The notes below the pieces were generated by a model. The model was not told where the DNA came from. It made no database searches and saw only the letters and a list, made by a program, of their open reading frames with translations. Made by a program: the position numbers and the translations under genes. A DNA stretch of 11,303 bases from Candidatus Nanopusillus sp. (lineage in GTDB: Archaea; Nanobdellota; Nanobdellia; Nanobdellales; Nanobdellaceae): contig JAPYVP010000017.1 in NCBI GenBank assembly GCA_028276785.1, positions 1 through 11,303 of the forward strand, given 5' to 3'. How positions within the stretch are numbered: position 1 is the first letter of the stretch; every line of letters begins with the position of its first letter. This document shows positions 826-11,303 of the stretch, piece after piece.

Positions 826-1212
826 ATGTATAAGGTAATATCTTTTTTGTATAGGCTAAGAGAGAAGAGGGGTTTAATTATAATTGTAGAAGGTAAGAAA
901 GATAAAGAAGTATTAAAAGAGTTTGGATTTAATAATGTATATACAATATATGAATTGAAAAAGGATGATGGAATATTTTTGAATTATAGGGAGGCAATTA
1001 TATTAACGGATAATGATAATAAGGGAAGAATGTTATATAAATATATAAGAAATCTATTAGAATCTGATGGGATAATTGTAAATGATATTGAAAGGAAAAG
1101 ATTCTTTAAATATTTTAGAGTAAGAGAAGTTGAGGATTTAAGGAAACATATTGAGAAAATAAAGTTTTACATTAATTATTTTGAGAATCCTGAGAAAATT
1201 TTGTATTCTTGA
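826..1212 (+). CDS. small stand-alone Toprim-domain protein (archaeal UPF0292 / RNase M5-like type)
   Basis: The Toprim signature is present: a conserved Glu in IIIVEGKKDKEVLKEFG and a DxD in AIILTDNDNKGR. The size of 128 aa is typical of archaeal single-domain Toprim proteins. The last 41 nt overlap the 3' end of the convergent primase gene. Confidence 0.75.
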   Translation: MYKVISFLYRLREKRGLIIIVEGKKDKEVLKEFGFNNVYTIYELKKDDGIFLNYREAIILTDNDNKGRMLYKYIRNLLESDGIIVNDIERKRFFKYFRVREVEDLRKHIEKIKFYINYFENPEKILYS

Positions 1213-2563
1213 TTTTTTTAATTGGATATGATAAAGGGTTTTTAATTAATGAACAGATATTATCTGGGGTACATACTCCGATATCTTTATAATATATTTC
1301 ATTATTGCAATTTGGAGTTAAATATTTTTTATTATTTTTATATAATTTTTTATGCCATTCTAGTTGATATTCTATATATCTATCTTTTAATGGATCTTGT
1401 AAACTTTCATTCCACTCTTTTATATATCTTTCAATTTTATCCCAATCCCACCCAATATTTGCGAAGAAATTTATTAATATAAATAAAGATCTCTTTCTAC
1501 CATCATCCATTTCTTTATTGTTTAATATATTCTTTATACATGGGGGAAATAAATCTTCATTTATTTCTATTTTTCTTTTCTTTATTTCTTCTACATCTTT
1601 CTTTGTCTCTTCAAACCCCTCCTGATTTTTGTAATTTTCTGCTAATTTGCTAAATTTTATTATTTCAAATTCATTTTTTATTTTCCATAATAATGAATCA
1701 TTGATTAATTTTTTTAATTCCTTAGATTCTCTTCTTTCTAAATCTTCGGTTAAATATGGTATGCCTTCATATGAATAATTATTTATATTAGAATCTTCGG
1801 GATTTAACTTTTCTATATAATTCTCTTTTATTGGTATGGATAAATTTCCCGTTTTTTCATTTATTGAATATAAGCATCTAATTAAGTGTCTTGATGATAT
1901 TAATATTGTATCTATTTCAATAATATCATATGGATTAAATTCTCCTATATTATTTACTCCATATTCTTTTAATTCATCTTCACTAAATTTTAATAATATT
2001 ATCTTCTTTAATTTTTCTTCTATTTCTTTTGATATATATGATGCCAAAATTCTTGCAAGATCTGGGAATAATTTCCTAGTTTCTTCTTCTACAAGATTGT
2101 CCTTCTTGTATACATTTATTGTTTCTGGAAATATTTCCCAAGGAATTGCTATATGAAAGCCTTTTCCTCCAGAATATTTTATATATATAGGATTAATATT
2201 TTTTTCTTTTAAGTAATCAAATATAATCCTTGCAGCAATTTTAGATAGATCTAGAGATTTTGCATCTATATCTATTATGAAATCCCATCCCAATCTATAT
2301 TCATTTAAATCCTTTTTTGAAACCTTCTCACTTAAAATATTTAAATCAATCCATCTTTCAATCGATATATGAAATGAAATAGCACCCTTTTTGATATAAT
2401 TTATTATATCTTCTTTTGTTTCTATTTTTGATGGCCTATGTCCAAAATTGTTATTTGATAATAAATATCCAACTTCTCTATTTTGTGAAATTTTTACCAT
2501 ATCTTCCAAAATCTCTTTGTTATTTTGATAAAATTTAATTAGATTATTTATCATTATGCTCAT
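1172..2563 (-). CDS. priS: archaeo-eukaryotic DNA primase, single chain: PriS catalytic domain fused to a PriL C-terminal Fe-S-like domain
   Basis: PriS motifs are GWDFIIDIDA (DxD, aa 92-101), YSGGKGFHI (aa 130-138) and SSRHLIRCLYSINEKTGN (aa 223-240). After a K/E-rich linker (about aa 300-335) come PriL-CTD-like motifs: FPPCIKN, GRKRSLFILINFF, TPNC, GVCTPDNIC and KNPLSY. These give four Cys (342, 419, 431, 437 by my count), consistent with a 4Fe-4S cluster. The alternative start is M4 (2554). Confidence 0.9.
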   Translation of the reverse strand: MSIMINNLIKFYQNNKEILEDMVKISQNREVGYLLSNNNFGHRPSKIETKEDIINYIKKGAISFHISIERWIDLNILSEKVSKKDLNEYRLGWDFIIDIDAKSLDLSKIAARIIFDYLKEKNINPIYIKYSGGKGFHIAIPWEIFPETINVYKKDNLVEEETRKLFPDLARILASYISKEIEEKLKKIILLKFSEDELKEYGVNNIGEFNPYDIIEIDTILISSRHLIRCLYSINEKTGNLSIPIKENYIEKLNPEDSNINNYSYEGIPYLTEDLERRESKELKKLINDSLLWKIKNEFEIIKFSKLAENYKNQEGFEETKKDVEEIKKRKIEINEDLFPPCIKNILNNKEMDDGRKRSLFILINFFANIGWDWDKIERYIKEWNESLQDPLKDRYIEYQLEWHKKLYKNNKKYLTPNCNNEIYYKDIGVCTPDNICSLIKNPLSYPIKKIKNTKFSQDSQNN

Positions 2564-6978: not shown

Positions 6979-6989
6979 TATTGCATATT

Positions 6990-7499
6990 ATGGTATCTGT
7001 AAGAGATGTGAATGGTCAAATGCTTGTAGAAAGATTAGCTAGATATCTATTTGAAAATTATAGAGATATAATAAAACCACCCAGCTGGGCATTTTTTATT
7101 AAAACAGGACCAGATAAGGAGAGAAATCCAGATTTTCCTCCAGATGTAGATTATGATGGTGGACCTGGATGGTGGTATTATAGAGCAGCATCGATTTTAA
7201 GAAAAGTATATTTATACGGACCTATTGGGGTTTCTAGATTAAGGAGAAAATATTCTGGATTAAGAAAAAGAGGAATGGAACCTGGAAAGGTTGTAAGAGG
7301 ATATGGAAAACTAATAAGGGAAATATTACATCAATTAGAAAATGCTGGATTAGTTATGAAAATAACTGAAGGAAAGAAAAAGGGAAGGGTTGTAACAAAT
7401 AATGGAAGAAGTTTATTAGATAAATTAGCCAATGAAATATATAAAGAATTAAATGACGAAAATAAGAATTTAATTAATTATATAAAATCCGTTTCATGA
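6990..7499 (+). CDS. rps19e: 30S ribosomal protein S19e (eS19)
   Basis: VRDVNGQMLVERLARYL, PPSWAFFIKTG, WWYYRAASILRKVYLYGPIGVSRLRRKYSG and LHQLENAGLV...GRVVTNNGRSLLDKLA match eS19. I prefer ATG 6990 (MVSVRDV) over the track's TTG at 6981. The protein carries a short insertion (DFPPDVDYDGGPG) before the WWY motif. Confidence 0.9.
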   Translation: MVSVRDVNGQMLVERLARYLFENYRDIIKPPSWAFFIKTGPDKERNPDFPPDVDYDGGPGWWYYRAASILRKVYLYGPIGVSRLRRKYSGLRKRGMEPGKVVRGYGKLIREILHQLENAGLVMKITEGKKKGRVVTNNGRSLLDKLANEIYKELNDENKNLINYIKSVS

Positions 7500-7966
7500 G
7501 AAGTATAAGCTTATGGGTTGAATTTTTGATATATACGGCATTTGCTATTTCTATACTTTCTTTTGTAATATACTTTGTTCATTTAACAGCTCAAAGTAAA
7601 CAGGATGAATTAAACTTAAAATATATTGTAAATTTATTGACAAATTTAAACTATCAAATAGAAACAATTGGATCTTGTTATTCATGTAATTATAAAGTTT
7701 TTGAAAATTTACCACCAAAAACAACCATATATATTTATCAGGGGAAAATAATGTGTATATATTATTCTACTGTAAATTATTCTCTACAAGTCCCTCCATA
7801 TATAAATTTAAATGTAACTAAATTATCTCCAAATAATTATAAATATAATTTTACTATTAATACAATCCCATTTAATTTATTAAATGGATCTAATCTTACA
7901 ATTACAAATAATCTATGTTTATTATTAGATAAAAATCAATCCGGTTTATATATTAGTTTATGCTAA
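7496..7966 (+). CDS. pilin-like membrane/secreted protein (156 aa), function unknown
   Basis: The start shares an ATGA with the rps19e stop. The N-terminus is MRS, then the hydrophobic ISLWVEFLIYTAFAISILSFVIYFV. The rest is N/Y/I-rich with 6 N-x-S/T sequons and 5 Cys (hand count). The N-terminus is paralogous to that of ORF 8400..8720. Confidence 0.65.
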   Translation: MRSISLWVEFLIYTAFAISILSFVIYFVHLTAQSKQDELNLKYIVNLLTNLNYQIETIGSCYSCNYKVFENLPPKTTIYIYQGKIMCIYYSTVNYSLQVPPYINLNVTKLSPNNYKYNFTINTIPFNLLNGSNLTITNNLCLLLDKNQSGLYISLC

Positions 7967-8403
7967 ATGCAAAAGAAATTAATATAATAACTATTGGAAC
8001 TACTTACATTATAACAAAAACAAATCCAATCTGGTGGATTATATAAAATAAAGTTTTCATTACAATATTTTAGTATACTTTTATTTACAATAAAGTATCC
8101 ATTAAAATAATAGCAACAATTTATATTATTTCTAGTACATTCTTGGATAGATAAATTATATGAAGATATACAAATGAAAGAAAAATTATAATTAATATAT
8201 TTTGTATAATTCTGAAAATATAATGTATAATTAGATATGTAAATATATCCAAGGTTTTTATATATGTATATTATTTGATCTTCAAAATTTTTTCCTACTA
8301 AATTTGGATTAATGTTATCTATTGGGGAAGGGTTATAATATGTAATAAAAGATAAAATAATAATAATTATAATTGTTGCTAATAATATATATTGAGATTT
8401 CAT
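7963..8403 (-). CDS. pilin-like membrane/secreted protein (146 aa), Cys-rich, function unknown
   Basis: ATGA overlap with the upstream 106-aa ORF. The N-terminus is MKSQ followed by YILLATIIIIIILSFITYY. The body has 6 sequons and 8 Cys (hand count). Its 3' end overlaps the convergent 156-aa ORF by 4 nt. Confidence 0.65.
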   Translation of the reverse strand: MKSQYILLATIIIIIILSFITYYNPSPIDNINPNLVGKNFEDQIIYIYKNLGYIYISNYTLYFQNYTKYINYNFSFICISSYNLSIQECTRNNINCCYYFNGYFIVNKSILKYCNENFILYNPPDWICFCYNVSSSNSYYINFFCI

Positions 8404-8720
8404 TTAAATATAATTAGTATATACGGATCAAAATAATCTTGGCCAGCATATAGATATTCAAATACTGGTTTATAATTTTGTATATATGTAGAATTTACTT
8501 GTTTTCCAAAATAACATACTGTGATATTATTATTTGTTAAGTTTATTATTTCATATATATATAGATTATTGTTGCATGAAGAATTTAAGTAAATTAAATT
8601 ATTGGGATCAAAAGTATAAATATTATAATTATTATATTTACTATAATAAGTATATAAAAAGAAAAATGTTAATATTGTTATTGAAAATGCTAATTCGACC
8701 AAAATTATCCAGCTCCTCAT
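8400..8720 (-). CDS. pilin-like membrane/secreted protein (106 aa), function unknown
   Basis: ATGA overlaps at both ends. The N-terminus MRSWIILVELAFSITILTFFFLY aligns with the 156-aa protein (MRS, VE[FL], AF[AS]I[ST]IL[ST]F). It has 4 sequons and 2 Cys. Confidence 0.6.
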   Translation of the reverse strand: MRSWIILVELAFSITILTFFFLYTYYSKYNNYNIYTFDPNNLIYLNSSCNNNLYIYEIINLTNNNITVCYFGKQVNSTYIQNYKPVFEYLYAGQDYFDPYILIIFK

Positions 8721-10924
8721 TTTATATATATTGTTAACTGATCTTTATATAATGTATTTACCATCGTATTATTTAATACATATATATTAAAGCTTTCAGA
8801 ATATCTGTAATTATTCGCAATATTCCCCACGTATATTGTACCGTTAAATACTGTTATATTTAAATTGTTAAAATAAAAATATACATCTTGATAATTTTTA
8901 GATATATTAATTAAATTATTTAAATTAATTATATTTATTGGTTCAATATAATTTATTTCGATATATGGAATTTGAGTAGAAAATGCTAAATATAGTGCTG
9001 TCTGTCTATCTAAATATGGATTTGAATATAGATAAAAATAGTAATTTAGATAACTATATTTATAATTTAATGTTGCATTTGTGAAATAAAGATTATTATA
9101 GTAGTCATATGATGAAGCATAAGAAATATTTATTATAGGATTATAATTTGTGTATAATATAGAATTTAAGTATCCTGAACAAAAAGATTGTATGTAGTAT
9201 CTTCTTAATATTATACCATTTTTATATTCATAATATAAATATCCATTATATAAATTGTCTAAATCAAATATTTTATTATAAATGTTCGTTGAGTTTAAAA
9301 TAAATCCATATTTGGGTTGAGAGGTATTCCAAAATATCATATCATTTGAATAATAATATTTTTGCGTATTAAATATATACCAATAAGTGTTAGAAAATAT
9401 TATATTCTTTATTGATAAATTTGTAGAATTGTATAAATATAATAGAGCTAATGAAGCATTATAAATATAGGGAGTTAAATTATAAGGCTCATATTCAGAA
9501 GTATAAAATGAAAATCCAATTATCAAATATAAAGAACATACATTTAAAAGAGTTGTTGGGATGGAATAATAGTTTCTATTATATGTATCTGTTAAATAAG
9601 AAAAATATGTTAAATTATTATTATATATTGCGAGATTATTATAAGAATCGGATAATAAAATTTTTCCCTTATTTAGATCGTTATATTGAGAAAAATCATA
9701 AGTTAAATTTGGACCTATAATAAATTTATAATTATTGGTTAAATTTGGTTGATAAATTATTTTCGTATTTGGTATTACATTATATGGAATTAAATTTATA
9801 TAATATGCATTAATATTTTGACCGGATATTTGCAATTTGGCATTATTTTTATCATTATAACAATAGTAGACATATAAAGAATTTTGATTTCCAGAAGATG
9901 GTAAATTTATATAACAATTATCTCCTAATTTTATATAAGCATTATAATAACTAGTGTTTTGAATATTAAATAATATTAAATAATTGCCTTTTGGAATGCT
10001 ATTATTATAAGTAATCTTAAAGATATTATATCGTATGCATAATCCAAAAAGATATTGAGAACAAGAATAAATATTATTTCCCGGATTCATATATGAAATA
10101 TTTATAGGAGTATCATTTGTCCAATATTGGCTAAATTGCTGATAATTTTGATAACTAAAATCATCATATACTGGAAATATTCTTTTTACATCACTTGAAT
10201 AAATGCTTATTCCATTTATTGGAGAAATATTTAATATTATATAACCATATGGGGGCATATTTAAACTAACCCAAATTCCATAGGCACCATTATTAAAGCT
10301 ATTACAATTTAAATTATCGTTTAAATAACAAAAATAATACTTATTTCCATTTAAATCTTTTACAGATAAATTGTAACCATTCTGTAGCCAATAAAATATA
10401 ACAGTAGAAGTTATGAATACAGGATAATTGATCAAATTTTGGTTTGATGGGTTTGAAACATTTATTAGAACATATTGAGGTTGACTATTATTTATATTAA
10501 AACTTGTAAAATTTGCATAGAAAAAAACCCCAACATTTGGATCTAAATATGTATTATTTGTATTATTTAATACTCCAGAATACTTTGTTAAAAAAGATAT
10601 ATTTATTGGATAATAAATTGGAAATGATGTACAAAAATCTTTGTATGCATTTTTATAAATTAAATCATCATATATTGGGGAATTTGGTAAACATTGATAA
10701 TACATAGATAAAGGTATCGAAACATTTAATGATAATAAATAATATTCACTTTCAATTGAATTTAATATATTGTTTATATAAGTATTATAATAATTTATTT
10801 GATTATAATTACTAATATTGCTTATTAAATATCCTTTATAAACTGTTAAATAAAATGTTAAAAATGAAATAAAAATTACAATGGCAATTATACCTTCTAT
10901 TTCTTTTATTATCCCTCTAACCAT
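8717..10924 (-). CDS. large pilin-like surface protein (735 aa) with a DUF2341-like region; candidate adhesin
   Basis: A 2.2-kb open frame in DNA this AT-rich cannot plausibly be chance. The N-terminus is MVRGIIKEIEG followed by IIAIVIFISFLTFYLTVY, where EG|IIAI fits the class III signal motif as I recall it. By hand count there are about 121 Asn, 112 Tyr, 29 N-x-S/T sequons and 10 Cys. Residues about 148-258 (YVLINVSNPSNQNLINYPVFIT...NLSVKDLNGNKYYFCYL...AYGIWVSLNMPPYGYIILNI...IFPVYDDFS) resemble the DUF2341 pattern. The start overlaps the ATPase gene by 16 nt. Confidence 0.85.
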   Translation of the reverse strand: MVRGIIKEIEGIIAIVIFISFLTFYLTVYKGYLISNISNYNQINYYNTYINNILNSIESEYYLLSLNVSIPLSMYYQCLPNSPIYDDLIYKNAYKDFCTSFPIYYPINISFLTKYSGVLNNTNNTYLDPNVGVFFYANFTSFNINNSQPQYVLINVSNPSNQNLINYPVFITSTVIFYWLQNGYNLSVKDLNGNKYYFCYLNDNLNCNSFNNGAYGIWVSLNMPPYGYIILNISPINGISIYSSDVKRIFPVYDDFSYQNYQQFSQYWTNDTPINISYMNPGNNIYSCSQYLFGLCIRYNIFKITYNNSIPKGNYLILFNIQNTSYYNAYIKLGDNCYINLPSSGNQNSLYVYYCYNDKNNAKLQISGQNINAYYINLIPYNVIPNTKIIYQPNLTNNYKFIIGPNLTYDFSQYNDLNKGKILLSDSYNNLAIYNNNLTYFSYLTDTYNRNYYSIPTTLLNVCSLYLIIGFSFYTSEYEPYNLTPYIYNASLALLYLYNSTNLSIKNIIFSNTYWYIFNTQKYYYSNDMIFWNTSQPKYGFILNSTNIYNKIFDLDNLYNGYLYYEYKNGIILRRYYIQSFCSGYLNSILYTNYNPIINISYASSYDYYNNLYFTNATLNYKYSYLNYYFYLYSNPYLDRQTALYLAFSTQIPYIEINYIEPINIINLNNLINISKNYQDVYFYFNNLNITVFNGTIYVGNIANNYRYSESFNIYVLNNTMVNTLYKDQLTIYIK

Positions 10925-11303
10925 AACCTCTTTCTAATTAAAGTTGGATCTGAACCTCCATGCCAAGAAACTCTAGGTTTCATTTGAACTGGATATATTC
11001 TTTCAGATTTATCATCTAAAATTAAAGCAGCACCCTTTTTCTTTGGTAAATTCTCATTCATATATATATCGATATCTTGTGCAGTAAAGTTTTTCATTAT
11101 TTCATTCAGAGATTTCAGATCTCGTTCTGCAGTTACTCTATGTGATATAACTATATCACTTTGGGTGATTACATCCGTATGCATTTTACCAGGTTGCTGA
11201 GTTGCTAATACTAATGTTATACCAGGTTGTCTTCCTTCTCTTATTATTTGTATTAATGGTTCTGTTGCTGGTGTAATTGATTCATTGGGAATTGCTTCAT
11301 GTG
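10909..11303 (-). CDS. FtsK/HerA-superfamily P-loop ATPase, C-terminal part only (N-terminus beyond the window end)
   Basis: The frame stays open upstream of the track's Met to the window edge: HEAIPNESITPATEPLIQIIREGRQPGITLVLATQQPGKMHTDVITQSDIVISHRVTAERDLKSL...PRVSWHGGSDP. The blocks EGRxxG(I/V)xLxLATQxP and (V/L)xxQxxxxIxxR are shared by the HerA (DUF87) and FtsK families. This does not look like the C-terminus of a PilB/FlaI-type ATPase. Confidence 0.8.
   Translation of the reverse strand, partial: HEAIPNESITPATEPLIQIIREGRQPGITLVLATQQPGKMHTDVITQSDIVISHRVTAERDLKSLNEIMKNFTAQDIDIYMNENLPKKKGAALILDDKSERIYPVQMKPRVSWHGGSDPTLIRKRLWLEG

Follow-up and report, generated by a model that had tools for sequence, protein, structure and literature searches.

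We identify, in an 11,303-nucleotide stretch of DNA from Candidatus Nanopusillus sp. (assembly GCA_028276785.1, contig JAPYVP010000017.1; the whole of this stretch is referred to as the window), a set of four genes whose products are probably a new, highly diverged form of the known archaeal type IV pilin and adhesin proteins, and which may encode a host-contact or DNA-uptake filament. Three of the genes follow directly on a gene for an ATPase of the HerA clade, and the fourth converges on them from the opposite strand. Nanoarchaeota cannot synthesise nucleotides, lipids or most amino acids, and these are taken from the host over a contact that is only tens of nanometres wide; we know of no molecules established as building that contact, nor of a cytoplasmic DNA-uptake motor in archaea outside of the Ced and Ted systems. 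The locus offers four concrete and conserved candidates for the host contact, all pilin-like and predicted to be glycosylated and one of them adhesin-like. It also highlights an uncharacterised, phylum-wide HerA-clade ATPase whose neighbourhoods join type IV pilus (T4P) machinery to single-stranded DNA-binding and recombination proteins, and which is a testable candidate for an archaeal DNA-uptake motor outside of Ced and Ted.

Read along the minus strand from its right end, the window begins with the C-terminal part of the ATPase (10909..11303; 131 codons and 130 residues in translation), the gene for which continues past the window end. The ATPase stop codon lies within a 16-nt overlap with the start of a 735-aa open reading frame (ORF; 8717..10924), which shares an ATGA with a 106-aa ORF (8400..8720), and this shares another with a 146-aa ORF (7963..8403). 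The 156-aa ORF (7496..7966), on the plus strand, runs convergently towards the 146-aa ORF, and the two overlap by 4 nt. G+C content drops to 0.19 over the 7.5-10 kb part of the window because the coding there is rich in Asn, Tyr and Ile. The ORF coordinates and overlaps had been given in a preliminary description of the window made from the sequence alone and were reproduced exactly, as were its hand counts of 29, 4, 6 and 6 N-glycosylation sequons in the 735-, 106-, 146- and 156-aa proteins; its range of 2-10 cysteines corresponds on recounting to 10, 2, 8 and 5 residues in the same order.

The 156-aa gene, whose three partners are on the minus strand, starts inside the stop codon of the ribosomal protein S19e gene (6981..7499, plus strand; identified by PF01090 in syntenic loci), and this arrangement is kept in all Nanopusillaceae loci. 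Because the two genes share an ATGA, the 156-aa gene is probably co-transcribed with that for S19e.

Each of the four proteins has a single N-terminal hydrophobic segment of about 20 residues that is its sole transmembrane (TM) segment by Kyte-Doolittle analysis, and charged residues make up just 9-10% of their sequences versus 24-36% in cytoplasmic proteins encoded in the same window. The sequons exceed those in composition-preserving shuffles, for which 16.2±3.5, 1.2, 2.1 and 2.9 are expected, and only 0-4% of shuffles reach the observed numbers. The sequon enrichment, the scarcity of charge and the invariant cysteines found in alignments of orthologs support an extracellular location.

The N-termini are strongly patterned. 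With a slash marking the candidate processing site, the 735-aa protein (29 sequons, 10 cysteines and 9% charged residues) begins MVRGIIKEIEG/IIAIVIFISFLTFYL, and its orthologs follow the pattern M[VA]R[GIV]..KE[IV]EG/[IV]IAIVIFISFLTFYL, in which EG/[IV]IAIVIF is invariant and RG/ is variable. The 106-aa family starts M[RK][SGN]/WII[LM][VI]ELAFSI, with an invariant Glu at +6, two invariant cysteines and three to four conserved sequons; the 146-aa family starts M[KR]S/QYILLATI, with Gln at +1, eight invariant cysteines and five conserved sequons; and the 156-aa family starts M[RK][SG]/[IV]SLW[VI]EFLIYTAFA, with an invariant Glu at +6, four invariant cysteines and three conserved sequons. Positions 2-3 in these three small families (22-25 orthologs each) are always [KR][GS], with Asn occurring once. 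Only the EG/IIAI of the large protein would fit the FlaFind motif as we take it to be. The published rule for archaeal prepilins is a charged residue at -2 followed by Gly, Ala or Ser at -1, and EppA-type pilins are marked by Gln at +1 and Glu at +5 (PMC4371748); in all four proteins a charged residue at -2 and Gly, Ala or Ser at -1 are placed before the hydrophobic domain, and the interchange of Gly and Ser at -1 fits the requirement for prepilin processing. Matches of the four proteins to the GEX2 Ig, HPS5 TPR and AID models in Pfam and NCBIfam were rejected as noise.

Two of the small proteins can also be aligned with pilins encoded in T4P operons of relatives. The 156-aa family aligns with W177, the archaellin-like pilin that opens these operons, with an hhalign probability of 87% (E=3.8e-6 over 54 columns), in an alignment that extends beyond the TM segment and sets RS/ on RG/. 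The N-terminus of the 106-aa protein aligns with the RG/W..I.E pilins (W146) that directly precede the ATPase in the same operons (E=1e-3, 24 columns). Comparison of the large protein with the 232-aa operon pilins gave only short, TM-level matches, and the same was seen among the four window families, such that paralogy of the four is not shown; no homolog of the 146-aa protein was found beyond Nanopusillaceae-type loci. The preliminary description had proposed that the four are archaeal type IV pilin-like proteins, and the N-terminal motifs, the conserved Glu and the likeness to T4P-operon pilins support their assignment as such, as a lineage-specific surface set of the Nanopusillaceae.

The large protein also has features of an adhesin. 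No Pfam match is obtained with the 735-aa protein itself, and DUF2341 (PF10102) is undetected in it, but an exhaustive HMMER search recovered two distant homologs that reveal a relationship. In P0187, a full-length homolog with 35% identity, PF10102 scores 24.5 bits against a gathering cut-off of 23.4 bits at the equivalent position, and P0195 contains three DUF2341 repeats and a LamG-like domain, with residues ~151-240 of the window protein aligning to one of the repeats (BLASTP E=1e-12; phmmer 5e-5). By comparison with these homologs a diverged DUF2341-like domain occupies approximately residues 148-260 (10145..10483, minus strand). DUF2341 proteins with class III signals have been proposed as archaeal pilus-tip adhesins by Makarova et al. 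(2016), whose census failed to identify cognate pilins for the T4P ATPases of nanoarchaea (PMC4858521). The diverged domain agrees with an earlier suggestion that one large and three small proteins resemble a tip adhesin with its pilins. Taking these sequence features together, we consider it likely that the four are extracellular, N-glycosylated and disulfide-bonded type IV pilin-like proteins in which the DUF2341 protein is the distal adhesin and the 156-aa protein, because it would be carried on the S19e transcript, is probably the most expressed. The latter is a candidate for the major subunit, with the 106- and 146-aa proteins as candidates for minor ones.

The four ORFs are real genes. 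The 735-aa protein shares 94% identity with a protein of Candidatus Nanopusillus, and its close homologs are all from Nanopusillus, Nanobsidianus stetteri and other Nanopusillaceae, including the cultured strain YN1, in which the ortholog is YN1_1890; the family is limited to the Nanopusillaceae and a few distant relatives. In about 24 Nanopusillaceae loci (including L003, YN1 [L083], L085 and L086-L109) the order is the same, with the ATPase (433 aa) followed by the large gene (680-755 aa), the 106- and 146-aa genes and, convergently, the 156-aa and S19e genes, and the lengths of the small proteins are identical throughout; stops and starts overlap from the ATPase to the 146-aa gene. Because the entire region is syntenic at this depth, the conserved order in these loci alone says little. 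Loci L110 and L111 are more informative, since the ATPase, large and 106-aa genes (in part followed by the 146-aa gene) retain overlapping stops and starts though the large protein is only 35-42% identical. Linkage of the ATPase to the surface genes, the conservation of which had been put forward as a check on the locus, is thus kept through the Nanopusillaceae and beyond. All five genes are under purifying selection, the ratio of nonsynonymous to synonymous substitution (dN/dS) being 0.01-0.08 in the ATPase gene and 0.08-0.33 among the four genes for surface proteins.

The ATPase fragment in the window gives weak matches to HerA, HerA_C and Zot, and contains a REGRQPG...ATQQPG core and an invariant C-terminal WHGG. 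Full-length orthologs are about 435 aa long with only ~45 residues before the Walker A motif and no TM segment, and match DUF87 (1.9e-11 and 1.2e-11) as well as HerA_C. When a profile of the family is compared with the PDB the closest chains are the HerA-clade DNA translocases 8xau (2e-13), 8wiv and 4d2i (2e-9); FtsK is matched weakly, and no VirB4 chain was found in this search. Scores with the NCBIfam equivalog models are 36-55 bits for HerA (cut-offs 800-970), 44.6 bits for CedD (cut-off 600) and 13.4 bits for CedB (cut-off 700). The ortholog in N. acidilobi, Nps_02800, belongs to arCOG00284 and is annotated as 'HerA helicase, category L', and that genome has a canonical HerA (arCOG00280) at a different locus. 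The preliminary description had raised the prospect that the ATPase would turn out to be an ordinary HerA in a NurA-Mre11-Rad50 operon, and this is not the case: none of the three genes is near the ATPase in any of the ~110 loci inspected, and the ATPase is, judged by its sequence relationships, a distinct family of the HerA clade, arCOG00284. It is found throughout the phylum (Nanoarchaeota/Nanobdellota), with at least 540 loci.

Three other features of the ATPase genes can be noted. The C-terminus of the family has an invariant P[RK]x[ST]WHGG[ES][AD]P (window 10909-11000, minus strand; alignment A4), which we did not notice in the matched HerA chains and which could be a family-specific interaction surface. 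Ten of 81 orthologs are 807-885 aa long (L012, L034, L007, L011, L013, L020, L037, L040, L046 and L051), and the two that were tested, L012 (4862-7390) and L034 (4736-7384), contain inteins (Intein_splicing, with or without LAGLIDADG) whose insertion sites differ, that of L012 being close to the P-loop and that of L034 close to Walker B. Many database entries are of 130-230 aa, and a split ATPase gene was considered and rejected: the breaks are artefacts of metagenome-assembled genomes (MAGs), such as an N-run at L001:9960-9975 and a homopolymer frameshift at L002:9760-9810, and intact 433-aa genes are usual.

To place the window locus in a broader context we compared the ATPase neighbourhoods of 80 species representatives drawn from the at least 540 loci. 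The commonest neighbours are TYW2/Trm5 (45 loci), a divergent DsbA-like gene (29 loci), RFC (24 loci), SSB (16 loci) and FEN1 (10 loci). In a clade of 13 species the ATPase is downstream of co-directional T4P genes at 12 loci, and the 13th lacks upstream sequence. The fullest of these operons, in L039, has the order pilin(177)-T2SSE-T2SSF-T2SSF-pilin(232)-pilin(146)-ATPase, and T2SSE, T2SSF and the HerA-like ATPase occur together in L012, L023, L037, L039, L056, L058, L064 and L075; L008, L015, L026 and L070 have little upstream sequence, with just one or two pilin genes preceding the ATPase and, in L008, a gene for a 616-aa secreted protein between the pilin and ATPase genes. The operon T2SSE matches PF00437 (2.6e-31) and is closest to FlaI (391 bits). 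In a separate clade, the Pacearchaeota-labelled MAG locus L048 has a gene for a 223-aa pilin-like protein (7406-8077, plus strand) 22 nt past the ATPase stop, with the N-terminus MKINRKA/IHHVEYVVAVSIF; this order mirrors that in the Nanopusillaceae, and the contig ends soon after. At four further loci (L072:6062-10351, L079:567-4897, L025:3183-7323 and L045:1667-5981) the ATPase is followed co-directionally by RPA (Rep_fac-A), RadA (Rad51) and Peptidase_A24, which puts an archaeal A24 prepilin peptidase in the unusual company of recombination genes. Pilin-like N-termini bearing a Glu were found in 23 of 1126 flanking ORFs, and 16 of these 23 are at offset -1 or -2 from the ATPase.

With the Nanopusillaceae included there are therefore three or four separate and differently organised linkages of the ATPase to T4P genes, which is more than we would readily put down to chance, and yet the linkage is not obligate. 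In a literature search that covered arCOG00284 and HerA with type IV pili in DPANN, we found no account of archaeal T4P loci with a HerA-like ATPase, and no description of the repeated association between such a soluble HerA-clade ATPase and T4P genes, RPA, RadA and an A24 peptidase. The DsbA-like gene encodes a membrane-anchored thioredoxin-fold protein; in 29 of ~80 loci (e.g. L001:8009-9049 and L002:8158-9114, both minus strand) it lies immediately before the ATPase gene in divergent orientation. It could be involved in disulfide formation in secreted proteins bearing cysteines, or could reflect inherited synteny.

The T4P operons of relatives change the interpretation of the ATPase. The preliminary description had correctly stated that no PilB, PilC or prepilin peptidase is encoded in the window, and had suggested that the pilin-like genes are instead wired to an ATPase of an unexpected family. 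This second suggestion is not sustained: operons in relatives contain a FlaI-like T2SSE, two T2SSF/TadC proteins and the same ATPase together, some three in four of the sampled relatives have unrelated genes next to the ATPase, and two T4P systems and an archaellum have been published for Nanopusillus-type genomes, where they are encoded elsewhere, along with four FlaJ/TadC homologs (PMC6142677). A separate and complete archaellum locus is present in Nanopusillaceae (PMC11420986), and a second ATPase is often found in archaeal T4P loci (PMC4858521).

A mechanism that could account for these patterns begins with insertion of the four proteins via Sec, after which each would be held by the N-terminal hydrophobic helix that follows the minimal M-[KR]-[GS] leader, and would be N-glycosylated and disulfide-bonded outside of the cell. 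They would be polymerised by T4P machinery (a FlaI/TadA-like ATPase with TadC) encoded elsewhere in the genome to form a short host-contacting filament or tip complex. The soluble, hexameric HerA-clade ATPase encoded upstream would act as an accessory motor and not as the assembly ATPase, presumably as a DNA translocase at the base of the filament or alongside it, importing or exchanging DNA. Cleavage of the leaders, assembly of a filament and physical coupling to the ATPase are steps that we infer. Because a classical ATPase and platform share an operon with it in relatives and are reported elsewhere in Nanopusillus-type genomes, we lean, if only slightly, towards a functional tie of the HerA-clade ATPase to T4P-type machinery as an accessory and not as a replacement for PilB and PilC. 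HerA-clade kinship, the SSB/RPA/RadA/RFC/FEN1 neighbourhoods and the precedent in Sulfolobales, where the Ups pili and the HerA-clade CedB and CedD are jointly required for DNA import (PMC11868833), point to DNA as the substrate, an assignment that is doubtful at present. The arrangement as a whole, a pilin-like set with an accessory HerA-clade DNA translocase in a manner resembling Ups and Ced, is the one that we tentatively favour, at a little under even chances.

Several results weigh against this favoured arrangement and lend themselves to other explanations, some bearing on the surface proteins and others on the ATPase. None of the four proteins matches a Pilin_N, Arch_flagellin or class III model in Pfam or NCBIfam at E<=1, and the leaders of the three small proteins are no more than three residues long, a length that must be genuine because the ORF starts listed are already the most upstream possible, and prepilin processing might then be dispensable. 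AlphaFold2 models are poor, with mean confidence (pLDDT) values of 44 for the large protein and 41 for the 156-aa protein from shallow alignments (31 and 12 sequences, 55-96% identical), leaving the pilin fold unconfirmed; the 156-aa model has a helix at residues 2-49 and then strands, all at this low confidence, and Foldseek comparisons of the two models with the PDB were uninformative, with TM-scores of ~0.1 to carbohydrate-binding/jelly-roll modules for the large protein and no match for that of 156 aa. The prepilin peptidase has been reported as unrecognised in two nanoarchaea (PMC4858521). All four points would be accommodated if the proteins were uncleaved, signal-anchored (type II) surface glycoproteins, either S-layer-associated or involved in host recognition, that do not polymerise and resemble pilins only superficially, and Jarett et al. 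label such proteins as no more than 'hypothetical external'. We think this unlikely, since [KR][GS] is kept at positions 2-3 with Gly and Ser interchanging, an invariant Glu within the hydrophobic segment is unusual for a simple anchor, the alignment of the 156-aa protein with a pilin from a T4P operon continues past the TM segment, and DUF2341 is typical of pilus-associated adhesins. Further points of difficulty are that residue 4 of the large protein is variable (G/I/V), that the N-terminal hhalign matches other than that of the 156-aa protein with W177 are short and weak, that T2SSE/PilB, T2SSF/PilC and prepilin peptidase genes are all missing from the window (the T2SSE and T2SSF genes also being missing from all Nanopusillaceae-type loci examined), and that none of the five orthologs was detected by shotgun proteomics of N. 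acidilobi, which is expected for glycosylated proteins, yet is notable for a soluble ATPase.

With regard to the ATPase, its neighbours are unrelated to T4P in ~60 of the 80 relatives, the 13 T4P-linked loci are one clade and hence represent one evolutionary event, RPA, RadA, RFC and FEN1 have housekeeping roles and operons arise fortuitously in compact genomes, and no DNA channel of the ComEC or CedA type was seen next to the ATPase, nor any multi-TM CedA-like neighbour. The adjacency could then be fortuitous, the ATPase being a housekeeping HerA-paralog helicase or translocase for repair, replication restart or chromosome segregation, and the surface genes an independent unit, possibly still pilin-like, that is co-transcribed with it through genome compactness. 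The prevalence of RFC, SSB, FEN1, TYW2/Trm5 and DsbA-like genes over T4P genes among the 80 neighbourhoods is in line with this, as are the placement of RPA and RadA after the ATPase in one clade, the far greater constraint on the ATPase (dN/dS 0.01-0.08 vs 0.08-0.33), the inteins counted in 10 orthologs (two tested), which are typical of DNA-metabolism ATPases, the category L annotation in N. acidilobi, and the presence of SepF and FtsZ within a few kb in Nanopusillaceae. We regard fortuitous adjacency as possible but rather unlikely, because T4P adjacency recurs in at least three to four ATPase clades with different arrangements (following pilins, preceding them, or in one string with the A24 peptidase), the stop-start overlap of the ATPase and large genes persists at 35% identity, and N. 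acidilobi has its separate canonical HerA. Alternatively, the ATPase could be a non-DNA accessory ring, a RecA-fold hexamer analogous to FlaH of the archaellum (or to TadZ/FleN) that sits on the FlaI-like ATPase and TadC platform and regulates or powers the assembly or secretion of the pilin-like proteins. The closeness of the operon T2SSE to FlaI, the weak archaellin-like character of the opening pilin (PF01917, 0.0017), the two small N-terminally anchored proteins at FlaF/FlaG-like positions and the commonness of a second ATPase in archaeal T4P loci all speak for such a ring, and the T4P operons have no FlaH-like gene and are closed by the HerA-like ATPase; but the ATPase has no sequence relation to FlaH/KaiC, its nearest relatives are DNA translocases, it is present in many loci with no T4P genes nearby, and the recurrent SSB/RPA/RadA neighbourhood would be left unexplained, so that this explanation seems improbable, and less probable than either simple anchors or chance adjacency. 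An integrated virus or mobile element, with an FtsK/HerA-type packaging ATPase and structural proteins, was suggested by the G+C of 0.19 across 7.5-10 kb and by weak similarities to Zot and the STIV B204 packaging ATPase. It is effectively excluded: the locus lies in core synteny in all relatives, between S19e/L37Ae/SepF and GatD/deoxyhypusine synthase, no relative was found among 2.9 million viral contigs, the coding rich in Asn, Tyr and Ile accounts for the dip in G+C, and the ATPase, found throughout the phylum, is strongly constrained by purifying selection.

If the favoured arrangement of a pilin-like set with an accessory translocase is taken a step further, the locus would specify part of a hybrid machine in which a T4P-like filament tipped by the DUF2341 protein is coupled to a soluble HerA-clade translocase that passes DNA to RPA and RadA. 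We think this unlikely as it stands, but if true the machine would be an archaeal competence or host-DNA-scavenging apparatus at the symbiont-host contact, and it could correspond to the intercellular filament seen by cryo-electron tomography in strain YN1, the attachment organelle of which contains such a filament (PMC11420986). Because YN1 has both this organelle and the exact locus (YN1_1890 and its neighbours), the hypothesis is directly testable, and all four pilin-like proteins are encoded in both N. acidilobi and YN1, which are cultivable systems.

The remainder of the window, which has a G+C content of 24%, carries housekeeping genes for a fused primase, RpoE', Spt4, GluRS, prefoldin, SepF, a ZPR1-like protein, L37Ae and S19e. 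The primase gene is a single 463-aa ORF (1172-2563, minus strand) joining small and large subunit domains as a PriS-PriL fusion, on the basis of weak DNA_primase_S and DNA_primase_lrg matches in the syntenic genes of YN1 and L085, and its end is overlapped by a 128-aa Toprim-domain ORF (826-1212, plus strand). Loci L003 (296-592, plus strand) and L085 (919-1215, plus strand) contain, some 6 kb upstream of the ATPase, a 98-aa ORF (MKSESAAGIGLLFPALLLFATIATT...) flanked by FtsZ and GatD; it has an N-terminal hydrophobic segment, several cysteines and no Pfam match, and may encode a further small secreted or pilin-like protein.

Four known systems provide useful comparisons. The archaeal T4P loci with a DUF2341 tip-adhesin candidate (Makarova, Koonin & Albers 2016; clade 1, Methanococci/Thermococci) likewise combine a large DUF2341 protein with several small ones that have a common N-terminal build (charged residue, Gly/Ala/Ser, hydrophobic domain), and their products, as predicted here, are N-glycosylated extracellular proteins; the Gln at +1 or Glu near +5 recalls the EppA-type pilins. 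The Nanopusillaceae locus differs from these in having no PilB/TadC or peptidase gene, in leaders shortened to M-[KR]-[GS], in a DUF2341 domain that in the window is too diverged for detection by Pfam, in the restriction of the family to the Nanopusillaceae and close relatives, and in being led by a HerA-clade ATPase. The T4P operons of relatives are similar to the archaellum operon (FlaB, FlaF/G, FlaH, FlaI, FlaJ) in their FlaI-like T2SSE, weakly archaellin-like opening pilin, two small anchored proteins and second RecA-fold ATPase, but the FlaI score is under the equivalog cut-off, FlaJ is split in two, FlaH and FlaC/D/E are missing, and the second ATPase is HerA-like. With canonical HerA (arCOG00280) the ATPase shares the DUF87/HerA core and the EGR(K/Q)xG...TQ(R/Q)P signature, and its nearest solved relatives are HerA hexamers; the ~45 residues before Walker A in a ~435-aa protein leave no N-domain the size of a HAS-barrel, and unlike canonical HerA it has no NurA, Mre11 or Rad50 neighbours and belongs to a separate arCOG, 00284. 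The fourth comparison is with Ups and Ced (UpsA/B/C and UpsE/F; CedA/A1/A2, CedB and CedD), in which T4P and HerA-clade ATPases also come together and import is followed by homologous recombination (PMC11868833). Unlike the Ced ATPases, that of the Nanopusillaceae has no TM segment and no VirB4-like N-domain and scores far under the cut-offs of both the CedB and CedD models, and neither a CedA/VirB6-like channel nor a CedA1-type pilin adjoins it; and whereas ups and ced are separate loci in Sulfolobales, here the ATPase adjoins the T4P and pilin genes directly.

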